64,000 nucleotides of DNA from Candidatus Spongiisociaceae bacterium (GCA_965262915.1 OZ253564.1:2336001-2400000), one strand, 5' to 3'; positions 714 through 32,448 are shown, counted from the stretch's first letter. The notes: generated by a model not told the origin, from the letters alone. Numbers and translations are program-made.

Positions 714-3105
<2,392 letters not shown>

Positions 3106-3157
3106 GACTCCATTATCTCCCAACTAATCGAGTCTCCGGAAAACCCGGTGCGGTTCA

Positions 3158-3613
3158 CACAGCCGCCGACGAGGTCGTGTCAACCACCAGCGCCGGGCTG
3201 CCATGAGCTGCTGCGTCTTCGATCAACCGGCGGATAGGCCCCTCGTCGTTGGGAACCGGGCGGGCGAACAACGGCTCGCCTCGAGCCGACAGCACACAGG
3301 CGTAGTGTTTCCCCTTGGCGATATCAACACCGACGAACACCTCGGGGGTGGGCTGGGGACAATCTTGCATCAGGAGAATCCTTTCCGGTTCGGACGCATG
3401 CGACGCTGCCCGCAGGTACCAACGCCTCAACCACATCTGCGAACCAGCCCCACAATCTCGGTGCATGTCCCCCTCAGAGGTCGCAGGCACCCAACCACGG
3501 CAGGTGGCAACACCCCCCAGGCCATCTCTGTGACAGGGGGACAGAGCCCTGCCCGCCGCGGCGAGCAACCAGCCCCGATACTCACACACCAGAGCTACCG
3601 AACAAGGTATAAG
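3158..3613 (-). mobile_element. IS110-family remnant: non-coding left end plus N-terminal DEDD domain, cut by IS3
   Basis: ATG at 3370 gives MQDCPQPTPEVFVGVDIAKGKHYACVLSARGEPLFARPVPNDE (IS110 N-terminal signature). About 240 bp of non-coding leader precedes it. The left boundary is approximate. Confidence 0.75.
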
Positions 3614-4448: not shown

Positions 4449-7400
4449 TGCGCCGTCGGCACCTCATTGAATATGAAGGCGGTGTTGCCTGGTCCCCAGA
4501 TGTCGAGTCGGATGGCTACGCCGCTTATGAAGAGCGCGCCTTCGGCGCGGGTTGCCGGGCGGTGGGGGCAGAACAGTCCGGGTTCGCATCCGGGCACGAC
4601 TTGGAAGTCTGTCAGCCAGGCAATGGCCGGGGTGTAGAACCTTTCGGGCGCCACATCGGTGTAGGGAGGGGTTCCACCCTGGTGGTCGGCTTGCACATGT
4701 CAGTATAGGAGGGTCGCCATCTGTCCCCTGGTGACATCTTGGGTGGGGCAGAACCGCCAGTCGGGGTCTCCGAACCGGCCTTGGGTGCATCCCAGTGTGG
4801 TTCCGTTGGAGACCGCCCAGCCGATGGCTTGGTCGGCGTATACACCATCTGGGACATCGGTGAAGGCTTCCGATCCCCGATAGGTTGGGGTGGGTCGTCC
4901 GGCGGCTCTCCACAGGAAGGTCACGAATTGCTGGCGGGTGAGGTTGCTCTCAGGGCAGAACATTGTGGGTGTGCATCCTGCGGTGACTTGGTGGAGGATC
5001 ATCCACGACACGGCTGACTCGTACCAGGCTCCGGCTACGACATCGTCGAACAGTTCAGACGCTCTGGGCGGTTCACCACCACCATCGGCGCCACCACCGC
5101 CACCACCACCCGAAGAACCGCCGCTCGAAGAACTGCCGGAGGAACCGCCGCTCGAAGAACTGCCGGAGGAACCGCCGCCACCGCCGCCCGAAGAACCGCC
5201 GCCGCCACCGCCGCCCGAAGAACCGCCGCCACCAGCATCGCCACCGCCTGAGGGCGGGCTCTGATCGGCCTCGTTGACGTCGGTGACGTTGATCGTCAGC
5301 GTGACGCTGTCGCTCAAACCGTCCGGGTTGGTGGCGGTGACTATGACTTCGTATGAACGCCTGGTCTCGTAGTCCATTGCCGCGTTGGCCCGTAACTCTC
5401 CAACCGTCGGATCCGGGATGTTGAAGGACGCCGCATCGGGGCCGCTCAGCGTGTAGGTGAGCGTTGCGCCCTTCGGGTCAAGGGCCAGCACCTTGGCGAC
5501 GATGCTTAATGGGCTGTTGTTTTCCTCCGCATCTCGGACCTGGGTGTCGGTCATGAAGGCCGGCGCCCGGCTGGCAGTGACCCGGAGTATCCGGTCCCTG
5601 CCCAGACCTAAGTCTGATCGGTCGGTGGTGACGTAGAGGGCGCCGTCAGGACCCATTACGGGGCTCCGCAGCCGGCCCCATACCCAGTTGGGTTCGGGTG
5701 AAATGACATGGCTCACGAAGTCGCCTTCCTGGGTGAACTCGAAGATACGCAGCGACTTCATCTTGAGCGTGGCCACGGCCAGCCGCCCTTCCCACTCGCC
5801 CCAATCCTCCCCCTCCAAGAAGGCGCCGTCGCTGGTGGCCGGCGTCGGGTTCCCCGACGACCACTTGGCCTCGATGGCGTCGGGATAACGCTCGAGGTCG
5901 GTCATGGGGCCGTCCAAGCCGGAGCTCGCCGGATCCCAGCCGTAGTTGCCGCCTGCCACCAGCAGGTTGATCTCGTCATCCCAGTGCGGGCCGTGCTCCA
6001 CCGACCACATCTGGTTGGCGCCGGGCCGCAGGGCCAGGCCCTGCGGATTCCGGTGGCCGTAGGTATAGACCGGCGACGGAGCGAAGGGATTCGTAGGCGC
6101 CCCGGCGCCTGTCGATGCGTCAACACGCAGGATCTTGCCGGCGAGTGAGCCGAGGTCCTGGGCGTTGGTCTGCACCCCTCCGTCGCCGGTCGAGATCCAC
6201 AGGTAGCCTTGCGGGCCGAAGCGGACCCGGCAGCCGGCAAGACCGGCGCCGAAGTTGCTGATCTCCCAGTAGACGAGGGGATCGTCTACCCGTGTGGCTG
6301 TGGTGTAGCCATCGTCGATAGTCCAGGAAACCACCTGCACTGCGACATCCCAGTGGCCCTGGCAGGTGTAGAACCGCCGGTTGGACGCGAAGTCGGGATC
6401 GGTGACGATCCCCATCAGGCCAGTCTTCACATCGACCCATAGATCGCTGAAGTCGGCGGTGACGGTCTGGATCGTTCCGTCGGTGAGGCGGCTGCTCAGT
6501 ACCCCCCACCGCTCGGTAAACAGCATCGTCCCATCGGGCGTGAAGGCGATGTCCCACGGGTGCGACAGGCGCGAGACGAGTTCCAGGACCGACAACTCAG
6601 GCGCCGGTGCGGGTTCACCGACCGGGTGGTCCGATACGACCTCCGCGGTCTTGCCGGAGCCCTGCGCGTCGGTGTACGTCGCCGTGGCCCGAAGATACAT
6701 TCCCTCTTTGTCGCCGTCAGGCGCGTAATCAACGCCGGCCCAGCGGTCGGGCATGTCGGAAACAGCCGTCCAGCTGACCTTGTTCGAGGAAAACGCCCAC
6801 TGCCATTCCACAGGCTGGCCGTATTCGTCCACCACACCGCCGTCCGGGTCGTCCACCCTGGCCCTGAGCACGGTTCCAACCCGCGGCTGGGTGGGAAACA
6901 GGGTGACGGTTCCGTCCTCGTCAACGTTGATCACGTCGATGGTCACCACGATCTCGCCGCTGAGGCCGAGGCTGTCGGTGGCGATCACCGTCACCGAATA
7001 CTCCGACTTGGCCTCGTGGTCGAGGGCGGCTTCCGTGCGCATCTGGCCGGTCGTGGCGTCGATGGCGAACGATGCGGCGTCGGGGCCGCCGAGCGAGTAG
7101 CTCACCGAGTCTCCGCTGTCGGGGTCCGTGGCCACAAACGGTTCGCCGAAGTCCACACCGGCGGCCGTATTCTCGGGAACGGCGCGGGCGCCGCTCTCCG
7201 TGGCCGGGAAGGACGGCGAGAGCGACTGGAGGGTGAAGGTCAGCGTGGCGATCGGCTTGGCCGAGAAACTGCGGGTGCCGCTGATGCTCGCGATCACGCC
7301 CTGCGGGTTGGTGGCGACGCTGGGGCTGAGCGAGAAGTCGTCGCCGTCCTCGGTTCCGGCGTCCCACGGGAAGAGGTCCACCTCGCGGGAGGCGAGCCGG

Positions 7401-8098
7401 CGGCCCTCGCTGTCGAGCAAGGGCAGCCCGGAGACGCCGACAAACCAGTCGTGGCTCGGCGCGATCATCGTCGTGAGCGTCACCGCGGGTACCTGCTGGT
7501 GAGCGTGACGTCGCTCAAGGTTCTTCCGACGGTCCTTAACGTAGCGTTGCTGCCATTCGTGGTGGCGGTGACGGTGGTCTGCGCGACCGTGTAGCCGACG
7601 GACGCGGTGTAGGAGGTCGTTGCGCCGACGAACGTCGGGTACAGCCTCGCGCCGGTGAGCGTAGAGGTCGCCGAGGGTGGCATCGTCGGAGAGCGTCGTC
7701 GTCCGCGCCCGGGTGGCCGCGCCCGTCACCGTCTCGTCGTTACCGTCGTCGGCACTGGAGCTCACCCTCACCTTGGCGGCCTTGCCTTCGTCTGAGTCCA
7801 CCAGCGTCACGGCACTGCTGGTAACGGAGCTTTCCATCCTGCTCGGACCGGGGACGACCTCGACGATCTGTGGGGACGGGGCCTGTTCGTCTTCCGACCC
7901 TTCTGCCCGCACCGGCCCGGCGGAGACCAGAACGGCGACCGCGAGCACGCCCAATAGGCCGCCCACTCCAACCGTTCCACTTTCCTGTTCGTCTGGGGAC
8001 GGTAGGGTCGGATCAGCTTGTGGGCGGCGCCGATCTCCGAAAGGGCATCTGCGAAGTGTTTGGTTTCTGCGGTAGGCCATGGCGTCGTCGGTCATCAC
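4445..8098 (-). pseudogene. Large secreted mosaic protein: cadherin-like sandwich, partial Spondin_N, cadherin, Ig-like, PQQ glucose/sorbosone dehydrogenase-type propeller, cadherin, G/S linker, 3 SLH. Nonsense codon at 4700-4702.
   Basis: MIAPSHDWFVGVSG..DAGTEDG (spondin); VPENT..ATDPDSGD..YSL..LDHE..Y (cadherin); LSHPWDIAFTPDG, YGHRNPQGLA, EHGPHWDDEINL (GSDH); FDDV..WY..AV.W..GC..FCP..TRQQ (SLH). ORF 4445-4696 continues the same frame after the TGA. Start codon uncertain. Confidence 0.8.
5070..5256 (-). repeat. Gly/Ser low-complexity linker repeats
   Basis: GGGGSSGGGG / SSGSSSSGG units between the last cadherin domain and the SLH domains. Confidence 0.85.
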
Positions 8099-9071: not shown

Positions 9072-10504
9072 GGCTCTTCGGAAATGAGTGGGGAGTAGGG
9101 GATCTGCCAGGGGGAGTTGGAATCCACCAGAAGTGAGGAGGGGTCCTCCATAATCGGGTGTTGGTAATGACATCCGAGGCAGGAGGACCCCTGTGGAAGC
9201 TGATCCTACGCGCATGTGCGAGAAGTTGGTAGGCCTAGGTGAGGTTGATCTGGTAGGGATCAACGACCCGGGCGAGGAGGCACCGTTGGAGGTGGTGATC
9301 CGGTCCCGCAAGCCCCGGCCGTTGTGTGAGTCCTGTGGCGGGTCGGTGTGGTCGAAGGGCTATCGGACGGTTGTGTTGGTGGATTTACCGGCGTTCGGCC
9401 GGCCTGTGCGGCTGCGGTGGCGGAAACGGCGCTGGACATGTCCGAACCCCGACTGTGCGCTCAGATCGTTCATCGAACAAGACCCCAAGATTGGTCCCCA
9501 ACGGGCGTTGTTGACATCCCGAGCGGCCCGGTGGGTGACCATCCAGGTGGGTGGGCGGGGCCGTTCGGTCGACGAGGTCGCCGCAGAACTTGGTTGTGAT
9601 TGGCATACGGTGAACAAAGAGGTTGGCCGCTGGGGCGAAGCGCTGCTGGAAGCAGACACCGATCGGGTCGGGACCGTCGAAGCTGTGGGAGTGGACGAGA
9701 CGTTGTTCTGGCGTCGGGGCCGTTGGCGTACCAAAGTCTGGTGCACCTCTGTCGTCGACGTTGGCGGCCACCAGCTGATCGACATAGTCCCTGGTAGAAC
9801 AGCAGAAAGCGCCGCAGCCTGGTTCCGGTCACAACCCACCGAATGGTGTGAGGCTATCCGCTGGGCGGTGTTGGACATGTCCGGTTCGTATCGGAAGGCG
9901 TATGACAGGGTGCTGCCGCACGCGCTGCAGGTAGCGGACCCGTTCCACGTCATCCGCCTCGCCAACCAGCGTCTCGACGAGGTACGACGAAGAGTCCAAA
10001 ACGAAACCCTCGGGCATCGAGGCCGCAAGGATGACCCGCTGTATCGGATACGGCGGCTCCTAACCGCTGCGCATGAGAGGATCAGCGACCGGGGTCAAAT
10101 ACGGCTGCGTGGTCTCCTCGATGCTGGTGACCCCTACGGGGAAGTGCGCACAGCCTGGCACGCGAAAGAGACGGTACGAGGCATCTACGGGATCGAGAGT
10201 CCGGTCCTTGCTCTCCGATACACCCTCCAGCTCGCAGACGACCTCCAACACGAATCCTGCCCACCCGAGATCAACAAGCTGGGTCGTACCATCGCCCGCT
10301 GGACCCCCCAGATCACCAACTGGCACATCTCGAAGGTAACCAACGGACCCACCGAAGCCCTCAACAACCTCATCAAACGGATCAAACGAGCAGCGTTCGG
10401 GTTCCGCAACTTCGCGAACTACCGAATCCGCGCCCTTCTCTACGCGGGGAAACCCAACTGGGACCTACTCCCATCGGTCACTCCCCACTGAAATCCGATG
10501 AGCC
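9072..10504 (+). mobile_element. ISL3-family IS, intact, with 8-bp TSD
   Basis: IRs GGCTCTTCGGAAATGAGTGGGGAGT / GGCTCATCGGATTTCAGTGGGGAGT; TSD AGAAAACC at 9064-9071 and 10505-10512. Confidence 0.95.
9193..10491 (+). CDS. ISL3-family transposase
   Basis: Zinc finger CESC..CPNPDC, VGVDET, VLDMSGSY, DPFHVI, TNGPTEALNNLIKRIKR..FGFRN. Confidence 0.95.
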   Translation: MEADPTRMCEKLVGLGEVDLVGINDPGEEAPLEVVIRSRKPRPLCESCGGSVWSKGYRTVVLVDLPAFGRPVRLRWRKRRWTCPNPDCALRSFIEQDPKIGPQRALLTSRAARWVTIQVGGRGRSVDEVAAELGCDWHTVNKEVGRWGEALLEADTDRVGTVEAVGVDETLFWRRGRWRTKVWCTSVVDVGGHQLIDIVPGRTAESAAAWFRSQPTEWCEAIRWAVLDMSGSYRKAYDRVLPHALQVADPFHVIRLANQRLDEVRRRVQNETLGHRGRKDDPLYRIRRLLTAAHERISDRGQIRLRGLLDAGDPYGEVRTAWHAKETVRGIYGIESPVLALRYTLQLADDLQHESCPPEINKLGRTIARWTPQITNWHISKVTNGPTEALNNLIKRIKRAAFGFRNFANYRIRALLYAGKPNWDLLPSVTPH

Positions 10505-11144
10505 AGAAAACCAGCTATCGGGGACGATCCCCGACCTGTCTGGTTTGGACAATCTCGTAGAGGCGTTCCTTCGCGATAACAACCTGTCAGGGACAGTCCC
10601 TACCTGGCTCGGTGATCTCGATAGCTTACGAGTACTCGATCTAAGCCACAACGCGTTGACCGGAACCATCCCCACCCAGATCGGTGAACTAAAGGCGATA
10701 GACTTTCTCAATATCAGCAACAATCAGCTGACGGGTACGCTTCCCACCGAGCTGGGCGATTTGAAGAATACCCTAACTCACCTCCAATTCGAACGTAACA
10801 GCCTATCGGGATCAATCCCTGCTTCACTGGGCGAACTCGAACACCTGGAGCGTGTACATCTCTTCGACAACCAGTTGACAGGATCGTTACCTGATGAGAT
10901 AGGTTCCCTCACCGGATTGAAACACCTATACATCCACGACAACAACGGTTTGATACTTCGGCAAGAACAGTTCGAAGGTTCCAACTATCCCGGTCTCCTT
11001 ACTCTCAAGATCACGAACAACGCCGGCAACAAGATGCTCAGACAAGCACTGATATCCACCAGACCTGCCTTGGACGTAACCTTGTTGCCTGAGGACCCAC
11101 CGGATTCGGACCCTGAACCAATCCCCGACCCACCGCCCCAGGAC

Positions 11145-11360
11145 TCTTCGGGTGGTGGCTCTACCGGTGGTGGTGGTTCTTCGGGTGGTGGCTCTACCGG
11201 TGGTGGTGGTTCTTCGGGTGGTGGCTCTACCGGTGGTGGTGGTTCTTCGGGTGGTGGCTCTACCGGTGGTGGTGGTTCTTCTGGTGGTGGTGGTTCTTCT
11301 GGTGGTGGTGGTTCTTCTGGTGGTGGTTCTTCCGGTGGTGGTGGTTCTTCTTCGGGTGGT
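11145..11360 (+). repeat. Gly/Ser linker; 33-bp unit (SSGGGSTGGGG) x4 plus shorter units
   Basis: TCTTCGGGTGGTGGCTCTACCGGTGGTGGTGGT repeated in tandem. Confidence 0.9.
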
Positions 11361-11393
11361 CGCCCGGCGGAGAAGGCTGAGCCGGTTGACAGT

Positions 11394-12416
11394 TTCGGTG
11401 ACGATGATGGCTCGGTGCATGAGGACGCGATCAATCGTCTGGCCGCAGCGGGGGTCACCGGGGGCTGCGGAGGGCGGGAGTTCTGCCCGTCGGCACCGGT
11501 AAGCAGGGCCCAGATGGCAACCTTCCTGGCCCGGGCGTTGGGCTTACCTGATACAGGTGAGGACTACTTCGGTGACGATGATGGCTCGGTGCATGAGGAC
11601 GCGATCAATCGTCTGGCCGCAGCGGGGGTCACCGGGGGCTGCGGAGGGCGGGAGTTCTGCCCGTCGGCACCGGTAAGCAGGGCCCAGATGGCAACCTTCC
11701 TGGCCCGGGCGTTGGGCTTACCTGATACAGGTGAGGACTACTTCGGTGACGATGATGGCTCGGTGCATGAGGACGCTATCAATCGTCTGGCCGCAGCGGG
11801 GGTCACCGGGGGCTGCGGAGGGCGGGAGTTCTGCCCGTCGGCACCGGTAAGCAGGGCCCAGATGGCAACCTTCCTGGCCCGGGCGTTGGGCTTACCTGAT
11901 ACAGGTGAGGACTACTTCGGTGACGATGATGGCTCGGTGCATGAGGACGCTATCAATCGTCTGGCCGCAGCGGGGGTCACCGGGGGCTGTGGGGAGCGGG
12001 AGTTCTGCCCGTCGGCACCGGTAAGCAGGGCCCAGATGGCAACCTTCCTGGCCCGGGCGTTGGGCTTACCTGATACAGGTGAGGACTACTTCGGTGACGA
12101 TGATGGCTCGGTGCATGAGGACGCTATCAATCGTCTGGCCGCAGCGGGGGTCACCGGGGGCTGCGGAGGGCGGGAGTTCTGCCCGTCGGCACCGGTAAGC
12201 AGGGCCCAGATGGCAACCTTCCTGGCCCGGGCGTTGGGCTTACCTGATACAGGTGAGGACTACTTCGGTGACGATGATGGCTCGGTGCATGAGGACGCGA
12301 TCAATCGTCTGGCCGCAGCGGGGGTCACCGGGGGCTGTGGGGAGCGGGAGTTCTGCCCGTCGGCACCGGTAAGCAGGGCCCAGATGGCAACCTTCCTGGC
12401 CCGGGCGCTTGATCTG
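11394..12416 (+). repeat. Six near-identical 174-bp tandem repeats, each encoding one SLH domain
   Basis: Units start at 11394, 11568, 11742, 11916, 12090 and 12264 (last one shortened): FGDDDGSVHEDAINRLAAAGVTGGCG(G/E)REFCPSAPVSRAQMATFLARAL. Confidence 0.95.
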
Positions 12417-19478: not shown

Positions 19479-21017
19479 ATGAAGGTACCGCTGACGGTCC
19501 GGGACTTCCTCGACCGGGCTGCTCTGATCTACCCGCACAGCCCGGCGGTGATCGACGAGCCTGACCAGCCGGCGACGAGTTGGGGAACGCTCACCTACGG
19601 CGAGGTGGCGGACCGGACCCGGTCGTTGGCCGGAGCGCTCGATCGTCTGGGCCTGGGTTGGGGCGAGCGGGTGGCCGTCGTGTCCCACAACGCCGCCCGG
19701 CTGCTCGTGATGATGCTGGGCGTCAGCGCCTACGGGCGCATCTCGGTCCCCATCAACTTCCGCCTCAACGCCGCGGAGGTCGGCTACATCGTGTCCCACT
19801 CCGGGGCGCGGCTGCTTCTGATCGACCCTGAACTGGCCGACGACCTGGCCGGGGTGGACTGCGAGCACCGCTACGTGATCGGCGCGGAGTCCGACGACGC
19901 CCTGTTCGGCGACACCGATGCGGACCCCCGTTCCTGGGTTCCGGACGAGGACGCTACAGCCACCATCAACTACACCAGCGGGACCACGGCCCGCCCGAAG
20001 GGTGTGCAGATGACCCACCGCAGCCTGTGGCTCAACGCGGTGATGTTCGGTTGGAGCGCCGGGGTCAGCGACCGCGATATCTACCTGCACACGCTGCCCA
20101 TGTTCCACTGCAACGGTTGGGGCATGCCCTACGCCCTCACCGGGATGGGCGCCGCCCAGGTCGTGCTACGAAACGTGGACGGGGCGGAGATCCTACGCCG
20201 CGTGGATCGCCACGGGGTGACCTACCTGTGCGGCGCCCCGGCGGTGGTGGCGGCGACTCTGACGGCCGCCGCGGAGTGGCCCGGACCCATCCCGGGATCG
20301 GGTCGGGTGCGCATGACCGTGGCGGGTGCTCCCCCGCCCACGAGGATGATCGAGCGCATGGAGTCCGAACTGGGCTGGGAGTTCATGCAACTGTACGGGC
20401 TCACCGAGACAGCCCCTTACCTGACCATGAACCGGGTCCGACCCGAGTGGGACGATCTGGGATCCGGCGAGCGGGCCAAGCGTCTGGTCCGCCAGGGTGT
20501 GCCTGCACTGGGCATTCGCCTACAGGTGTCACCTGAAGGTGAAGTCGAAGCACAGGGCAACCACGTGATGGAGGGCTACTGGGACCAACCCGACGCTACC
20601 GATGAGGCTCTGGCGGATGGATGGTTCCACACCGGAGACGGTGGCTATCTGGACGGGGACAGCTACCTGGTGCTCACCGACCGACGCAAGGACGTCATCA
20701 TCAGCGGCGGCGAGAACGTGTCCTCGATAGAGGTTGAGGACTGCCTATTCACCCATCCTGCGGTGGCGGAGGCGGCCGTCATCGGTGTTCCCGACGAGCG
20801 CTGGGGGGAGACGCCCAAGGCGCTGGTGGTGCTGGTCGAGGGTTCCCCAGCCACCGAGCAGGAACTGATCGACCACTGCCGGGAGCGCATGGCCCACTAC
20901 AAGTGCCCCTCGTCGGTGGAGTTTCGCGATGTCCTGGCGCGTACTGCCACCGGCAAGCTGCAGAAGTACAAGCTCCGCGCCCCCTACTGGGAAGGTCGAG
21001 ATCGCCGGATCAACTAG
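19479..21017 (+). CDS. AMP-binding acyl-CoA synthetase
   Basis: YTSGTTARPKG, LPMFHCNGW, YGLTET, FHTGD, DRRKDVIISGGEN, ATGKLQK. Confidence 0.93.
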   Translation: MKVPLTVRDFLDRAALIYPHSPAVIDEPDQPATSWGTLTYGEVADRTRSLAGALDRLGLGWGERVAVVSHNAARLLVMMLGVSAYGRISVPINFRLNAAEVGYIVSHSGARLLLIDPELADDLAGVDCEHRYVIGAESDDALFGDTDADPRSWVPDEDATATINYTSGTTARPKGVQMTHRSLWLNAVMFGWSAGVSDRDIYLHTLPMFHCNGWGMPYALTGMGAAQVVLRNVDGAEILRRVDRHGVTYLCGAPAVVAATLTAAAEWPGPIPGSGRVRMTVAGAPPPTRMIERMESELGWEFMQLYGLTETAPYLTMNRVRPEWDDLGSGERAKRLVRQGVPALGIRLQVSPEGEVEAQGNHVMEGYWDQPDATDEALADGWFHTGDGGYLDGDSYLVLTDRRKDVIISGGENVSSIEVEDCLFTHPAVAEAAVIGVPDERWGETPKALVVLVEGSPATEQELIDHCRERMAHYKCPSSVEFRDVLARTATGKLQKYKLRAPYWEGRDRRIN

Positions 21018-21057
21018 GGAATCCAGTCGTATCGTTGGAACCACGCGGTCCGCTCTA

Positions 21058-21517
21058 CTAAGAGATCCCGGGGTGGGGCGGTATACGAATCCAGTTACCG
21101 TTCAGGAAACGAGCAAGCCGTCGTGCCTCGCTCTTCTGGATCTTCGAGCCACCGTCGATGCGGAAGACTACTACGTGCTCGGGGTGCTCATCCGTAGGCC
21201 AAAGGTTGTGCTCCGAGCTTTCCTCCGAGCCGAATCACGGCAGCGCTCACTTGTGCTAAGCCATATGTGGGATAGTCGTTTATTAGACGATCAATAGAGT
21301 TCGGTGTACTTTCTAGGTGGAAGGACATAGCTGGTCCGGGGCAACCAAGTTTCTGAGCCTGCGCTGGTCGGTAGAACTGAATTGCCTGACTGTTAATCCG
21401 TGGTCTCCCCATATCATCTGGTCTGCTCCAGTCACAGAACTGTGAGTTAATCCTACGGATAAGTAGTGATTCGGGAGGAACACCTGTATGATCATCTCTG
21501 TAGTATTCCCCTGGCAT
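21058..21517 (-). pseudogene. Hypothetical, possibly ADP-ribosyltransferase-fold toxin-like protein, with a 1-bp frameshift at about 21201-21203
   Basis: ORF 21188-21517 (LLIRRI..RINSQA..MSFHL..YGLAQV). Removing one T from CCTTTGG continues QPWPTDEHPEHVVVFRIDGGSKIQKSEARRLARFLNGNWIRIPPHPGIS* to TAG 21058. The function is inference. Confidence 0.55.
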
Positions 21518-21522
21518 TATAG

Positions 21523-22047
21523 CTATTTATGAAGTACTTCACAGCTGTACGCAGAGAGAACTCGGTATAGGTCAGTACCGGCAGCATCCCGCAAGAGCCC
21601 CTCCCATTCGAGTCCCATGCCTTCGTCTTCATATTCAAGTTCAATTTCCCCGTTGTCCGCTACAGTAAAGGCAACGATGCGGTTCGGTGAGTACCACTCA
21701 ATATAGATACCTAGATAAGGAGTCGGAGTGATAGCAGGAACAGGAAGGTTTGGCATTGCCCCTGCGAGGGCACTGATCAGATTGGAGGCTGTTCCGATCG
21801 CGATAGGACTAATAGGGCCAGAGTCGGACTCATCCCAGCCTGGAGTCAACCATCGTAAGTTTCGCACGCTGACAAGAGTTGGGTCTTTCCAATTCGTCAG
21901 AATATGAGGATTCGACAGTACGGCACCAGTAGCCCATTCAGAAGGCTCGCCCGTATGCCATCTAACAACGGAGCCAACACTACTGACATCTATTGTTTCA
22001 TATAGTGAAGGGAATGGAGGCAAGCTTGCTGCACTCGTTGTAGTCAT
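21523..22047 (-). CDS. Hypothetical protein, middle gene of the island; candidate antitoxin/immunity
   Basis: GGGAGG RBS and ATGA coupling to the upstream gene; pattern L..L.PGWD..P.I.PTP..GI.IEW; acidic C-terminus. Confidence 0.7.
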   Translation of the reverse strand: MTTTSAASLPPFPSLYETIDVSSVGSVVRWHTGEPSEWATGAVLSNPHILTNWKDPTLVSVRNLRWLTPGWDESDSGPISPIAIGTASNLISALAGAMPNLPVPAITPTPYLGIYIEWYSPNRIVAFTVADNGEIELEYEDEGMGLEWEGLLRDAAGTDLYRVLSAYSCEVLHK

Positions 22048-22725
22048 GTCAAAGCCTCCCTTTGTCTATACCCCCAGCTCTTGTGTATAGAGGGTGTTGT
22101 AATATCATAGAATCCTCTTACGATCCACTCACGACCACAATCAAGAAACTTAACGACACCAGTTATATCACTAGCTGTGGGTTTACCTCGTGCAGTCAAA
22201 CTTAGTATTACGTATGGCATGTCTGACTGGACGTCATAACTCGTTAGTGAGGAAGTCACTGAGTGCGGTGAGATACCGCTTGAATCTGGTTCTACCAGAT
22301 TCATAACGTTCGTAGTGAGGCTTGGCTGGTGTCTTGCGCCAGTTATACGCGTACCAGTCGGACTGTAACTGTACGAGGTGGTTGTCGTCGAAGAACAAGA
22401 ATCGTGGTGGACGCGGTTCATTCCGCACCGTCAACGTGACTCCACTCTTGGCAGGTACGGATGGGACGCGTTCGATGGGCATGTCGTAAGGGGGAGACTG
22501 GGCATCTGACGGCAGTTCACGAGCGAACTCGCGGTCCCAGAAGCGAACGATCTGCGCTGAGGTGAGTTCAGGTACCTCAAGAAACCCGACACCCAGCACA
22601 GTCTCCACGACGGGCGGATTAGAGAAGTCCGGCAGGTTATCGCCGCTCAAGAGCGAGGGATCCGCAGACGATGCATTGTCCGCCAGTGTAGTACTGGAAG
22701 GGTGAATCCGAATGATGCTCGGCAC
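22044..22725 (-). pseudogene. TIGR04255-like protein, broken at about 22236 (frameshift or internal deletion)
   Basis: LPDFSNPPVVETVLGVGF..RFLF..LVQLQSD..NWRK..Y..YE in one frame; C-terminus LSLTARGKP..FLDCGREWIVRGFYDITT..HKSWG in another. Family recognised from the N-terminal motif. Confidence 0.7.
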
Positions 22726-22815
22726 GAGTGGTGGGAGCCTTGCGGCGGTGGCACGCGCTAGAGGTGGTTCGCTTGCTTGACAGCTGGACGCCGGCGACAG
22801 TCGGTTTCTGTCTCC

Positions 22816-23235
22816 TCAGGCGCGCTCCAAGTCGATCGACGCCGAGTTGATGCAGTAGCGCAGGCCGGTGGGTCGGGGTCCGTCGGGGAAGACATGGCCG
22901 AGATGGGACCGGCAATTCCCGCAGATCACCTCGGTGCGGGCCATTCCCAGGCTGCGATCGGTGTGCTGCTCGATGGGCGCCCCGTCCACTACATCGTAGA
23001 AGCTCGGCCATCCCGTCCCGGAGTCGTACTTCTCGTCACTTTGGAACAGCGGAGCGCCGCATCCGATGCACATGTAGGTGCCGGCCTCCTTGTTGTTCCA
23101 GTACTCGCCCGTGAACGGCCGCTCGGTGCCAGCCTCCCGGGCCACGTAGTACTGCATCGGTGTCAGTTGCTTGCGCCACTCCCGTTCCGTGGTCGGAAGC
23201 GGGTTGTCCTCCGTAGTCGTGCTGGTCTCGGTCAT
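22816..23235 (-). CDS. msrB: Peptide-methionine (R)-S-oxide reductase
   Basis: [41 protein letters not shown]. Confidence 0.96.
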
Positions 23236-25089: not shown

Positions 25090-25774
25090 CCGAACGCGGA
25101 CCCTCTAACCCTGAATCCACCGATGGGGAGGGCGCAGCGGACATGGAGATATGGTGGAAATGCCTCCTGATCTGCGGCGATAGCTATTGGTAAGGATGGT
25201 TCGGTCCTGGGAAGAGGAGCAACTTCCTGTGAGTGGTGGATCCCGGAGATCGCCCTGGTCAGGATTGGTTTTCGGAATATGAATCGGTGGATTCAGGCTA
25301 ACGCAGTACATCCCGACCGCCAAAACAGTGGCGGTCCCAAATAGGTGCCCGCGTCAGAACCGCCAGGTCGCGAAAAACGCCGCTACGATCTCTCCGCAGG
25401 GCCCCCCCACCGTTCCTGGGGTCGGAGCGCGTTGTTCCCGCCTGGGCCGGTCTACCTGGCTCCGAGATCGTTTTTCCCTCGGGCGGTCGAATGACGTCCG
25501 TTCGTACCGCGCGGGTGCTTGGTACTTCCCATAGTGCAACACGGCTGTGACAACTTCAACCCCCTCGTCGGCCGTCATCTTGGTGAGCAGGAGTTGCATG
25601 CGCCCGCCCACCTGCTCTGCGGGTGGCTTCTTCGGCCGGCTGGATTTGGCTCCTCTGGGTGAGTGGTTCGGGGTCTTGCTTCTTGGGTGAGCGTTCCCCG
25701 GGTAGCGTGCAGCGGGGAGCACCATGTCCTGTCGTCAGCCAGGCACGGGGGGACGGAGGAGAGTAGAGATCACC

Positions 25775-26872
25775 ATGGCGGGTTCAGGGGCCGTGCGGGT
25801 GAGGATCGTTGCTGGTGCGGTCGCTATGGCCCTGGTGGTCTCGTATCTCCTGTGGCTGCGGGCCCGTGACGAGGTCATCGAGCCAACCACCATGATTACC
25901 TGCCCAACCCGAACCGTCCCCACCATCACAGCCGGCTCGGGGCCTACCGGTGGTCGCATCGTTTACGAGAGTCATCGCGACGGCGACAGCGAGGTCTACG
26001 TCCTCGACCTGGACTCCCGAACCGAACAGCAAGTGACCAACAACATCCACTTCGACAGGGGTCCGCGGTGGGCGCCCGACGGTTCCCGCATCGCATACCT
26101 GAGCGACCGTGACGGCGACTCCGAGGTCTACGTCCTCGACCTGGACTCCCGAACCGAACAGCAAGTGACCAACAACACCCACTTCGACAGGGGTCCGCGG
26201 TGGGCGCCCGACGGTTCCCGCATCGCATACCTGAGCGACCGTGACGGCGACTTCGAGGTCTACGTCCTCGATCTGGAAGGCGGGACGGAACATCGAGTGA
26301 CCGACAACACAGCCGACGATCATTCCCCGGATTGGTCACCGGACGGTTCCCGCATCGTCTACACCAGCGACCGTGACGGGGATTTCGAGATCTACATCCT
26401 CGACCTAGCCGGCGGGAAAGAACGACAACTCACCGACAACACGGCGGACGATTGGTGGCCGCTGTGGTCACCGGACGGTTCCCGTATCGCATACGCCAGT
26501 GACCGTGACGGTGACCAGGAGATCTACATCCTCGACCTGAACACCGGGACCCTACGACAGATCACCCACAACACCCGCCTCGATTGGTGGCATCTGTGGT
26601 CACCCGACGGCACCTGCATCGTTTACGCCAGTGACCGTGACGGTGACCAGGAGATCTACATCCTCGATCTTGACACAGGCGTCGAACAACAACTCACCAA
26701 CAACACCCACGACGACGAACGCCCGGTTTGGTCACCGGACGGCACCCGCATTGCCTACGAAACCGACCGCGACGGCAACTGGGACGTATATGTCCGCGAC
26801 CTGGAAGGCGGGACGGAACAGAAAGTCACGAACAATCCGGGCGGAGTCGTGGGGTTGCAATGGTCTCCTTAG
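25775..26872 (+). CDS. Membrane-anchored TolB-like (PD40) beta-propeller protein
   Basis: One TM anchor, then seven 44-aa repeats WSPDG.RI.Y.SDRDGD.EIY.LDL. Confidence 0.9.
   Translation: MAGSGAVRVRIVAGAVAMALVVSYLLWLRARDEVIEPTTMITCPTRTVPTITAGSGPTGGRIVYESHRDGDSEVYVLDLDSRTEQQVTNNIHFDRGPRWAPDGSRIAYLSDRDGDSEVYVLDLDSRTEQQVTNNTHFDRGPRWAPDGSRIAYLSDRDGDFEVYVLDLEGGTEHRVTDNTADDHSPDWSPDGSRIVYTSDRDGDFEIYILDLAGGKERQLTDNTADDWWPLWSPDGSRIAYASDRDGDQEIYILDLNTGTLRQITHNTRLDWWHLWSPDGTCIVYASDRDGDQEIYILDLDTGVEQQLTNNTHDDERPVWSPDGTRIAYETDRDGNWDVYVRDLEGGTEQKVTNNPGGVVGLQWSP
25975..26869 (+). repeat. 132-bp tandem blade repeats; the first two are nearly identical
   Basis: GAGGTCTACGTCCTCGA recurs at 25991, 26123 and 26255. 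Confidence 0.9.
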
Positions 26873-30651: not shown

Positions 30652-31490
30652 ACCGGGATCATAGACACGAGCAGCGACGCGGGGAGGTGACCGTGGCGGT
30701 TAGCGGAATAGCGGCTCTCCCCCTCGACGAATCGAGAGGGTCGAGACCCTGACCCGTTTCCGTCCCAAACCGGCCGACTCCGGCCCGTGGACGTTAACCA
30801 TCGTAACGCAAGGGGCTAGGAGGCGATGTGCGGGCCGGGAGAACGTCGGCACGCACAGAAAGGCCGATGGCCGAACGGTTTGCAAGGCGGGATCAGGAAT
30901 CGACGTGCCGATCTGACGAGGCCCGCGGCGACCCGGGGCGCAATCCGACACGAGATGTGCCGGCCTATCCGCTGCCCGGTGGGCCGATAGTTTGCCTCCT
31001 TGTACCGACGGTTCCGTACACCACTGCAACTTACGGGGAAACCCATGCCTCGGTGGAAGTGGGTATGGCAGGTATCCCGCTGGGACCAAGCATCTGTACG
31101 TTGGCGATTGCCCATGGTCAGCGGATTGTCGGGTGCTGGTTGTGATGGTGATCGCCAAAGTATCTCCTGGGTTGACCATCGAAGTCTCGCCACCCTCCTG
31201 GAATCCGGCCGGGTGTGGCTGCCGGTATGTTTCTCCCCACACCGGGGGTGGTGCCCGGGACCTGCTTCAGGTAGATGTGGGGTCCTTGTTTCGGCAGGCT
31301 AGATGCGGTCGTAAGGCTCGATCTGACCCGCCTGGTCGATCAGTACCCGGCTCACGAGTGGGTTTCCGAGAACCAGCCGGTTCCGACGCCGGAGTATCTT
31401 GGCTAAGGTTTGAGTTGAGGAAACCGACTGATTGCACTCGTCGGTAGCAGGTGGATCGGAGGCAGTATTCCAGAGTCGCGCCCCATAGCT

Positions 31491-32177
31491 ATGCTGGTTG
31501 ACGGTGACAACGCGCAGCCATCCTTGATAGAGCATGTCCTTGCCGAGATCACAAAGTACGGGACAGTAACTACGCGACGGATCTACGGCGACTGGACCAC
31601 AGCACAGATGAGGGGATGGAAAGACTCGCTTCACACCTTTGCCATCCAACCCATCCAACAGTTCCGCTATACCGTCGGTAAGAACTCCACCGACAGCGCA
31701 TTGATAATCGATGCGATGGATCTACTCCATGCAGGAACGGTTGACGGCTTCTGTATAGTATCGAGTGATAGTGACTATACGAGGCTGGCTACAAGAATTC
31801 GTGAACAGGGCTTGTTTGTGATGGGTATAGGTCAGGCTCATACACCCGAGCCGTTTGTGAAGGCATGCGAGATATTCGTCCATACGGAAAACCTGGTTCG
31901 ACCGGCGCAACAAGAAACCCGTACCAAGGATATGGACAAGAAAGAGTGGATCCAGATAGCCGAGCGTGCTGTCGAGATGGCTACCCAGGATGATGGTTGG
32001 GCTTCCCTTGGGGAGGTCGGCGCCTACATACGTCAATTGGACCCTGCGTTCGACGTGCGCACCTATGGATACAAGCAACTATCGCTGCTGATCAAGTCTC
32101 GTCCTAAGCTATTCGAGACACGACAGTCGAAGACCGAGGGAGGGTCCTCACACATATACGTGAAACTCAACTCATGA
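31491..32177 (+). CDS. NYN (LabA/DUF88) domain protein with C-terminal LOTUS/OST-HTH
   Basis: LVDGDNA, RRIYGDW, GKNSTDSALIIDAMDLL, VSSDSDYTRLA; DDGWASLGEVG..FDVRTYGYKQLS. True start may lie slightly upstream. Confidence 0.92.
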   Translation: MLVDGDNAQPSLIEHVLAEITKYGTVTTRRIYGDWTTAQMRGWKDSLHTFAIQPIQQFRYTVGKNSTDSALIIDAMDLLHAGTVDGFCIVSSDSDYTRLATRIREQGLFVMGIGQAHTPEPFVKACEIFVHTENLVRPAQQETRTKDMDKKEWIQIAERAVEMATQDDGWASLGEVGAYIRQLDPAFDVRTYGYKQLSLLIKSRPKLFETRQSKTEGGSSHIYVKLNS

Positions 32178-32448
32178 AAGCCGTATCCCGGTTCTTCACT
32201 GAGGTGTTGCCTAAGTTAGTGACGCTTCACTCGCATACCTATCGCTTGTAACGACTCTCAAGTAGAAGCCACGGGGTGGGACCCGCCGGAGAGACAATCC
32301 GGTGAGTCGAGGTCCGGCCTAGACATTGATGGGAAAAAAAGGGTTCGCTGAGCGGCTACTGTCCCAGGATGATGACAGCGGGTGCCGTGAACGCGCGACT
32401 CACCCATCCTTGAGCACGCAACGCGTGTAGGGGTACCGCACCGGTGCT

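Follow-up and report, generated by a model that had tools for sequence, protein, structure and literature searches.

A broken copy of a recurring three-gene TIGR04255 cassette in Candidatus Spongiisociaceae: a candidate toxin–antitoxin–accessory module

A low-GC block holds a decaying copy of a conserved three-gene cassette

The stretch of Candidatus Spongiisociaceae bacterium DNA analysed here (GCA_965262915.1 OZ253564.1:2336001-2400000; 64,000 nucleotides, hereafter the window) contains at 21058-22650, on the minus strand, three tightly coupled genes with a low guanine-plus-cytosine content (GC). Gene 1 belongs to the family TIGR04255, gene 2 encodes a small candidate antitoxin, and gene 3 encodes a protein with a predicted ADP-ribosyltransferase (ART)-type fold. 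Comparison with relatives showed that the triad is a conserved recurring cassette, of which the window copy is broken. We propose, with roughly even confidence, that a mobile toxin–antitoxin (TA)–accessory cassette of three parts, probably with an anti-phage role, is decaying in this block. In the order in which the genes are read, the parts of the cassette are:

22651-22815, minus strand: leader between msrB and gene 1, with a TACnnT hexamer about 40 nucleotides before the gene 1 start
22234-22650, minus strand: gene 1 N-terminal piece, TIGR04255 family (E 1.2e-5; alignment with the relative at locus L002), first of two alpha/beta repeats, ending at a premature TGA
22044-22241, minus strand: gene 1 C-terminal piece, out of frame with the first piece, about 72-76 codons having been deleted before it (match to family profile positions 211-274, E 7.5e-23; alignment with 13 relatives; tblastn)
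21523-22047, minus strand: gene 2, intact, 174 residues, candidate antitoxin, homologous to the C-terminal domain of PDC-M32A (open frame; PADLOC match)
21188-21517, minus strand: gene 3 N-terminal piece, 109 residues up to the first stop codon, including the Arg pair and the Ser that are conserved in the ART-type domain (profile and alignment)
21058-21200, minus strand: gene 3 C-terminal piece, frame-shifted relative to the first and carrying the conserved His and Trp (profile positions 101-137, E 7.9e-6; in frame in protein P0005)

The GC of the cassette is 0.514, compared with a mean of 0.654 (standard deviation 0.027) for stretches of the same length in the window and 0.566 for the lowest such stretch elsewhere, making the block the GC minimum of the window; over 21018-22815, the span used in a preliminary description of this DNA, the value is 0.525. 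Genes 1 and 2 overlap by ATGA at 22047-22044, a gap of 5 nucleotides separates the gene 2 stop (21523) from the gene 3 ATG (21517), and GGGAGG precedes the gene 2 ATG. The low-GC block of three coupled minus-strand genes reported in that description was thus confirmed, as were its statements that genes 1 and 3 are broken while gene 2 is intact and that gene 1 is a TIGR04255 gene, for which the evidence follows.

The triad recurs across bacterial phyla

A scan of GTDB with the gene 1 alignment yielded 287 relatives, of which the best 80 loci were kept; these were picked by gene 1 motifs and include near-copies, so that the counts drawn from them are not independent. The gene 2 profile was built from 150 proteins found without gene context, and the gene 3 profile was seeded from nine close loci and iterated on the same loci. 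The results showed that the gene 2 profile matches the open reading frame (ORF) directly after gene 1 in 74 of the 80 loci, and that the triad is contiguous in 69, with genes 1 and 2 only in five and gene 1 only in six. Nearly all triad loci have overlaps or gaps of <40 nucleotides between the genes. The 69 triad loci represent 51 distinct flanking contexts, and their hosts belong to Actinomycetota, Acidobacteriota, Planctomycetota, Nitrospirota and smaller groups. The full triad is undamaged in 68 of the 80 loci; this number includes L067, in which genes 2 and 3 are separated by a long ORF that is unrelated to them and probably a transposase. Taken together, these results demonstrate that the triad is a conserved recurring cassette, in keeping with the single module envisaged in the preliminary description.

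TIGR04255 is matched by all 72 gene 1 relatives, the intact L002 protein scoring 38.8 bits over positions 9-269 (cut-off 30); the window fragment scores 25.2 bits (E 1.2e-5) over half the model, its incomplete length explaining why it stays below the 30-bit cut-off. The family has no function assigned to it.

The nearest relatives of the window copy are in Acidimicrobiia genome bins (support 98 in a gene 2 tree, which was made by a quick method, groups mainly by phylum and is not proof of transfer). The same triad is found on a Mycobacterium paragordonae plasmid, and a query with gene 3 alone reached a P2-like Ralstonia phage record (tblastn E 0.1; the record is flagged as unverified), which contains all three genes (profile E 1.7e-5, 3.1e-15 and 1.7e-13) in a patch with a GC of 0.49-0.57. 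In this record (L089:2260-4555) the triad is followed by ORFs that, by eye, we take to resemble a cassette of PAAR, adaptor and nuclease-toxin genes. The GC of the cassette is below that of its flanks in 56 of the 59 loci having enough flank. Phage searches with gene 1 and with gene 2 gave no match, and neither did plasmid searches with the window gene 2 and with a gene 3 relative.

Genes 1 and 3 of the window copy are broken

Gene 1 of the window has an early stop at 22236-22234, and its C-terminal 60 or so residues lie in a different frame; at the junction, about 72-76 codons are absent by comparison with the relatives P0017 and P0008, which are 77-80% identical over the N-terminal part. The true start is probably the TTG at 22650 and not the ORF-caller start at 22725, and the N-terminal piece read from this TTG shares 61% identity with the intact L002 protein over residues 1-138 of the latter. 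Gene 3 consists of two pieces in different frames, separated by a one-base break located in a run of three T at 21203-21201, which jointly span the 153-residue L002 relative (58% identity over residues 1-105 and 55% over residues 106-149). The truncated gene 3 product is also listed on a contig of 2,127 bases, as is a truncated gene 1 product, which differs by one substitution and is listed on two contigs; the breaks are therefore probably not errors of a single assembly. Since P0005, from another assembly, is in frame through the gene 3 break site, either broken and unbroken alleles both exist or one of them is an error. Programmed frameshifting in gene 3 was ruled out, because 61 relatives and P0005 use one frame. 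With genes 1 and 3 broken, the window cassette is probably inactive and gene 2 orphaned. P0020, a protein of 77 residues, shares 97% identity with the C-terminal end of gene 2 (21523-21756), so that in another assembly gene 2 may be split.

Among the 80 loci, gene 3 is broken, lost or replaced next to an intact gene 2 in five (L032, L042, L041, L059 and L061; L063 ends at a contig end and was left out of this count). A broken gene 2 with an intact gene 3 was seen once, in a second copy in L052. This lopsided loss suits a toxin and its antitoxin, with the reservation that few loci are involved and that some of the breaks may stem from long-read errors. L052 holds two different triad copies within 4 kb (6142-8030 and 9983-11810), and gene 2 of the first copy is frame-broken.

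Gene 3 is predicted to have an ART-type fold with conserved Arg, Ser and His

The window gene 3 contains the motifs LIRRI, MSF and PEHVVV, all of which lie on conserved columns. The intact L002 gene 3 product was folded with 63 aligned rows and gave a predicted local distance difference test score (pLDDT) of 94. When this model was compared with 48,161 chains by an exhaustive aligner, the best matches were KptA (Z-score 6.2, root-mean-square deviation [rmsd] 3.1, 93 residues aligned), AvrPphF (6.0), Tpt1 (5.4) and Tse2 (5.2, rmsd 3.7, 111 residues aligned). Judged by our reading of their titles, the first 28 rows and about 46 of the 50 rows belong to the ART superfamily. The individual Z-scores are weak; it is because ART rows rank uniformly first that the model is assigned an ART-type fold.

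The alignment showed that S65, R96 and H114 are invariant in all 61 full-length gene 3 rows, and that R40 (59/61) and R21 and R22 (57/61 each) are nearly so; no Tyr column reaches 50%. In residue types and order, this pattern of conservation fits the Arg-Ser-His pocket of Tse2, formed by R14, T79, S80 and H122 (10.64898/2026.06.15.732508; background in PMC6099711). It does not fit CmdT, whose triad is H-Y-[EDQ] with a catalytic Tyr, Y41 (PMC11618068). Thus, of the Tse2/CmdT-like ART suggested in the preliminary description, the fold, with Tse2 among the four best structural matches, and the Arg-Ser-His residues hold up, and the CmdT active site does not. ART clades are treated in 10.1101/2020.07.21.169896 and the chemistry of KptA in PMC9503650. 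The Pfam family ADPRTs_Tse2 matched none of 63 gene 3 members at E 0.05, and an Atlas search with the gene 3 fragment gave no usable match. Pfam gave no match for genes 1-3, and PDB sequence searches with the three family profiles returned nothing credible.

Gene 2 is a candidate antitoxin

At the N-terminus, gene 2 proteins carry a variable tail, 16-82 residues long across 61 proteins; after it comes a conserved acidic domain with a mean net charge of -8 and the motifs GWD and P..G..IEW. Gene 2 is the fastest-changing gene of the three, with a mean identity of 27% compared with 43% and 37% for the other two. All 63 gene 2 members match the C-terminal domain of PDC-M32A, the window protein with E 2.9e-4, and the match is confined to profile positions 260-340. 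An Atlas search with gene 2 reached unnamed clusters only (0.93). No longer, fused form of gene 2 was found among 8,000 candidates, a result that is uninformative since such forms exist on plasmids.

Genes 2 and 3 form a core pair, with gene 1 exchangeable

The gene 2 query matched ten plasmid records, of which seven were fetched and three apparent near-copies were left out. A gene-3-like ORF lies next to gene 2 in five of the seven fetched loci, and TIGR04255 is present in none; one of the seven, L086, was a false match. Two Rhodococcus plasmids carry true PDC-M32A and PDC-M32B genes, the B genes matching the gene 3 profile weakly (hhalign E 0.001-0.003). Fusion of TIGR04255 inside PDC-M32A was considered and rejected, the N-terminal domain being unrelated (hhalign probability 0.1-0.2%). 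In three Hymenobacter plasmids, a DUF4209 gene comes first and is followed by gene 2 and gene 3 homologues (L082:1927-4834, L084:1985-4893 and L088:1944-4752), the gene 3 homologue being unannotated in L088 and split in L084. An Acetobacter plasmid (L083:4037-5342) encodes two gene 2 domains in one protein, directly before the gene for SspB, a ClpXP adaptor.

Three distant plasmid TIGR04255 genes occur without genes 2 and 3, yet each leads two further genes. The followers are an unknown gene and an annotated zeta-toxin-family gene on a Vibrio plasmid, an unknown gene and an unannotated HEPN-like ORF on a Thermus plasmid, and two unknown genes on a Crinalium plasmid; the three-gene units ending in the HEPN-like ORF or the zeta-toxin-family gene lie at L091:3001-4695 and L090:158-2105. 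The HEPN-like ORF has a single PDB match, a retron HEPN (E 0.96), with the motif recognized by eye, and the Thermus unit adjoins a VapC pair, a methylase gene and cas6. The third Crinalium gene was rejected as a gene 3 homologue: its Arg, Ser and His have a similar order, but the hhalign probability is 0.3%. In L059, genes 1 and 2 are followed by a PIN-like ORF, whose own antitoxin segment is perhaps fused to gene 2. Because the pair persists without TIGR04255 and distant TIGR04255 genes lead other toxin-like genes, comparison of the loci identifies genes 2 and 3 as the constant core pair and gene 1 as an exchangeable component that accompanies several toxin-like pairs.

Gene 1 is predicted to be a two-repeat scaffold

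The gene 1 model (pLDDT 89) showed two alpha/beta repeats forming one large sheet (beta-saddle). An internal sequence repeat in gene 1 and homology between genes 1 and 2 were not detected by hhalign. In five distant TIGR04255 members, only E16, Q94, Y113, Y151 and N153 persist, and most Arg, Asp, Glu and His positions vary; the persistence of so few polar residues favours a binding scaffold rather than a conserved enzyme. Besides the best fold matches discussed below, the model matched McsB, TBP (Z-score 6.0-6.8), RepDE and glutamine synthetase-type ligases, and the viral rows that it matched are TBP-like or unnamed.

Genomic context and alternative explanations

Several observations count against an anti-phage TA cassette, and they are given here together with the alternatives on which they bear. 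The two nearest genes on each side of the cassette were compared with genes >6 kb away in 31 contexts with full flanks, using our own gene calls; the far set came from the same regions as the near set, and one gene is in both. Clear restriction-modification, restriction-like or TA domains were not enriched near the cassette (8/124 nearest and 5/110 far genes by our own classing); the linkage to defence islands that the preliminary description proposed to look for was not seen. Most copies sit among housekeeping genes, with insertions beside tuf-rpsJ, rplK, hem and dnaK-type genes. The selection and redundancy of the 80 loci weigh in the same direction, and gene 1 is kept alone and intact at one shared position in five related Acidobacteriota (Bryobacterales/Terriglobia) loci (L050, L051, L056, L066 and L078, near 10001-10830). 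The lack of enriched defence neighbours, the insertion sites and the frequent decay would suit a selfish addiction or stress module, built on the same TA core, that has no anti-phage role and spreads and decays as neutral cargo. We consider this explanation unlikely but worth keeping in view. It sits poorly with the homology to PDC-M32, a candidate picked by its embedding in defence systems, PDC systems having been predicted for future study (10.1101/2024.01.29.577857), with carriage by the P2-like phage record, and with the embedded copy in L023 (2508-14731), where the triad lies between DUF1156 and DUF499 genes in a restriction-like set on a single strand, downstream of a helicase-motif gene. 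The triads of L002 and L014 adjoin type I restriction-modification genes.

The assignment of gene 3 as a toxin has its own difficulties. The best Z-scores are only 6.2-6.6, which the tool itself describes as a possibly generic range; a Foldseek search with the model returned nothing at E 0.001; the top structural match, KptA/Tpt1, is a non-toxic RNA-repair enzyme; and the sole Glu column, E111, is occupied in 46 of 61 rows and is missing from the window lineage, leaving no invariant catalytic Glu. Gene 3 might instead encode a regulatory or repair ADP-ribosyl enzyme, acting by KptA-like RNA-end processing or by silencing a partner, with the upstream protein as the effector. The three Hymenobacter plasmids lend some weight to this, since the pair there follows a DUF4209 protein with a HEPN-like motif. 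Such a role is nevertheless improbable: several loci have gene 3 lost or broken with gene 1 intact, which a protective enzyme should not allow, and its slot is taken elsewhere by zeta-family, HEPN-like or PIN-like genes.

For gene 1, the best fold matches of the model were guanidino kinases (Z-score 7.8-9.1, rmsd 4.2-4.8, about 185 residues aligned), which, being enzymes, also tell against a non-catalytic accessory protein. The top rows comprise creatine, arginine and McsB kinases (Z-score 7.0-9.1, about 185 residues), and polar residues on the strands are invariant within the gene 1 subfamily. Gene 1 could on these grounds be an ATP-using enzyme of guanidino kinase or glutamine synthetase fold that modifies the gene 2 or gene 3 product as a toxin switch. 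This is more doubtful again than a non-toxic gene 3: two of the invariant motifs are the scan patterns themselves, so that invariance was partly selected, most polar positions change in the five distant members, the rmsd is 4.2-5.5, and TBP matches nearly as well (Z-score 6.0-6.8).

Least probable of all is an ordinary toxin–antitoxin–chaperone (TAC) system in which a SecB dimer, fused and diverged, serves as the chaperone. In its favour, two helices come after four long strands in the second half of the gene 1 model, an order reminiscent of SecB, and partner toxins vary as in TAC. Against it, Pfam SecB had no match in the 72 gene 1 family members at E 0.1, SecB is not in the top rows of the structural searches (50 rows in two of them), an absence that does not by itself exclude SecB, and the variable part of gene 2 is N-terminal.

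A possible mechanism

If the TA–accessory interpretation is correct, gene 3 would encode a small NAD+-using ART-fold toxin with an Arg-Ser-His site; the fold and residues are computed, and the supposed toxicity would most likely be directed at nucleic acid or the translation apparatus. Gene 2 would encode the cognate antitoxin, with a variable N-terminal tail and a conserved acidic domain that would hold the toxin. By analogy with TAC, in which a SecB-like chaperone stabilises and senses (10.1101/2024.02.24.581848), gene 1 may be a scaffold without catalytic activity, either stabilising the antitoxin or sensing a protein of the phage; if it were occupied or lost during infection, the toxin would be freed and the cell arrested.

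A broader proposal, put forward tentatively and with the balance of probability against it, is that TIGR04255 proteins constitute a second class of scaffold for phage sensing or chaperoning, independent of SecB and mounted on interchangeable TA warheads (Arg-Ser-His ART, HEPN-like, zeta-family and PIN-like), and that the gene 2–gene 3 warhead is also mounted on other sensors (the PDC-M32A N-terminal domain and DUF4209). If true, the cassettes would make up an unrecognised combinatorial family of tripartite defence systems, with an ART toxin class in which His replaces the catalytic Glu.

As a cluster of pseudogenes, the window copy is of interest only for what it points to. It leads to a testable role for TIGR04255, a named family of unknown function, to a link with the PDC-M32 defence candidate and, through its relatives, to dozens of intact operons. 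Should gene 1 prove to be a sensor, control of TA systems in the manner of a chaperone would have arisen on a second scaffold; likewise, an Arg-Ser-His ART that acts inside the cell and has its own antitoxin would offer a handle on Tse2-type toxin chemistry.

Flanks of the block and other features of the window

The block is bounded by two genes:

19479-21017, plus strand: AMP-binding acyl-CoA synthetase
ending at 22816, minus strand: msrB

A scan against family models indicated that five flanking genes are whole. The TACnnT hexamer of the leader was also seen by eye about 40 nucleotides ahead of the start in L002, L003 and L015 and is a possible -10 element; a scan of the block for sigma-70 consensus promoters found no site. 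Terminal repeats and a target duplication were looked for at the block and none was found.

Elsewhere in the window, the second-lowest GC stretch (30785-32377, 0.566) holds an ORF of 228 residues at 31491-32177, presumably resembling an NYN-type nuclease. At 1579-3370 and 9868-10491 lie ORFs and fragments that we take to be transposase-like. The protein encoded at 25724-26872 is built of near-identical repeats, which we assume to form a TolB-like propeller.

Comparison with known systems

The cassette shares gene 1 with the TIGR04255 family, all 72 relatives matching the model, and differs from an ordinary family member in that the window copy is a broken gene. A literature search, with most subscription journals outside its reach, found no paper on the triad or on TIGR04255, which leaves standing part of the preliminary claim of an undescribed system; the other part is narrowed by the likeness to PDC-M32. 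Gene 2 resembles the C-terminal domain of PDC-M32A (63/63) and gene 3 resembles PDC-M32B (11/63), in the same order. The likeness is weak but consistent, and on these profile matches genes 2 and 3 are distant homologues of the PADLOC candidate. PDC-M32A, of 375 residues, differs in having about 250 N-terminal residues that are unrelated to TIGR04255, and in the cassette the separate gene 1 fills their place.

KptA/Tpt1 and AvrPphF (HopF) are the best structural rows for gene 3 (Z-score 6.0-6.6), but in KptA only the NAD-binding lobe is matched (chain residues 84-180), and there is no sequence match. Tse2 of Pseudomonas aeruginosa, the partner of Tsi2, resembles gene 3 over 111 residues (Z-score 5.2) and has Arg, Ser and His in the same order with similar spacing, a comparison of residue types and order only. 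Unlike gene 3, Tse2 is a secreted effector of the type VI secretion system; the two share 11% identity and no Pfam family match.

CmdTAC (PD-T4-9) and other TAC systems are like the cassette in having three coupled genes, an ART-fold toxin (a candidate toxin here), a third gene common to different pairs and occurrence in a P2-like phage (PMC11618068; 10.1101/2024.02.24.581848). A PADLOC search matched no model named PD-T4-9. The cassette differs from CmdT in that gene 3 has Arg-Ser-His in place of H-Y-[EDQ], and from TAC in its order of accessory, antitoxin and toxin genes and in its accessory, a two-repeat protein of 275 residues without a SecB match. Moreover, the conserved part of gene 2 is C-terminal and its variable tail N-terminal, whereas the disordered ChAD element is C-terminal in TAC antitoxins (10.1101/2024.02.24.581848). 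The parallel with TAC drawn in the preliminary description therefore survives in the position of TIGR04255, which occupies the accessory slot before different toxin-like genes; SecB was matched neither by sequence nor among the top fold rows. The cassette lacks two tested features of TAC and CmdT and is not filed as a member of TAC; by analogy, it most plausibly acts like one.
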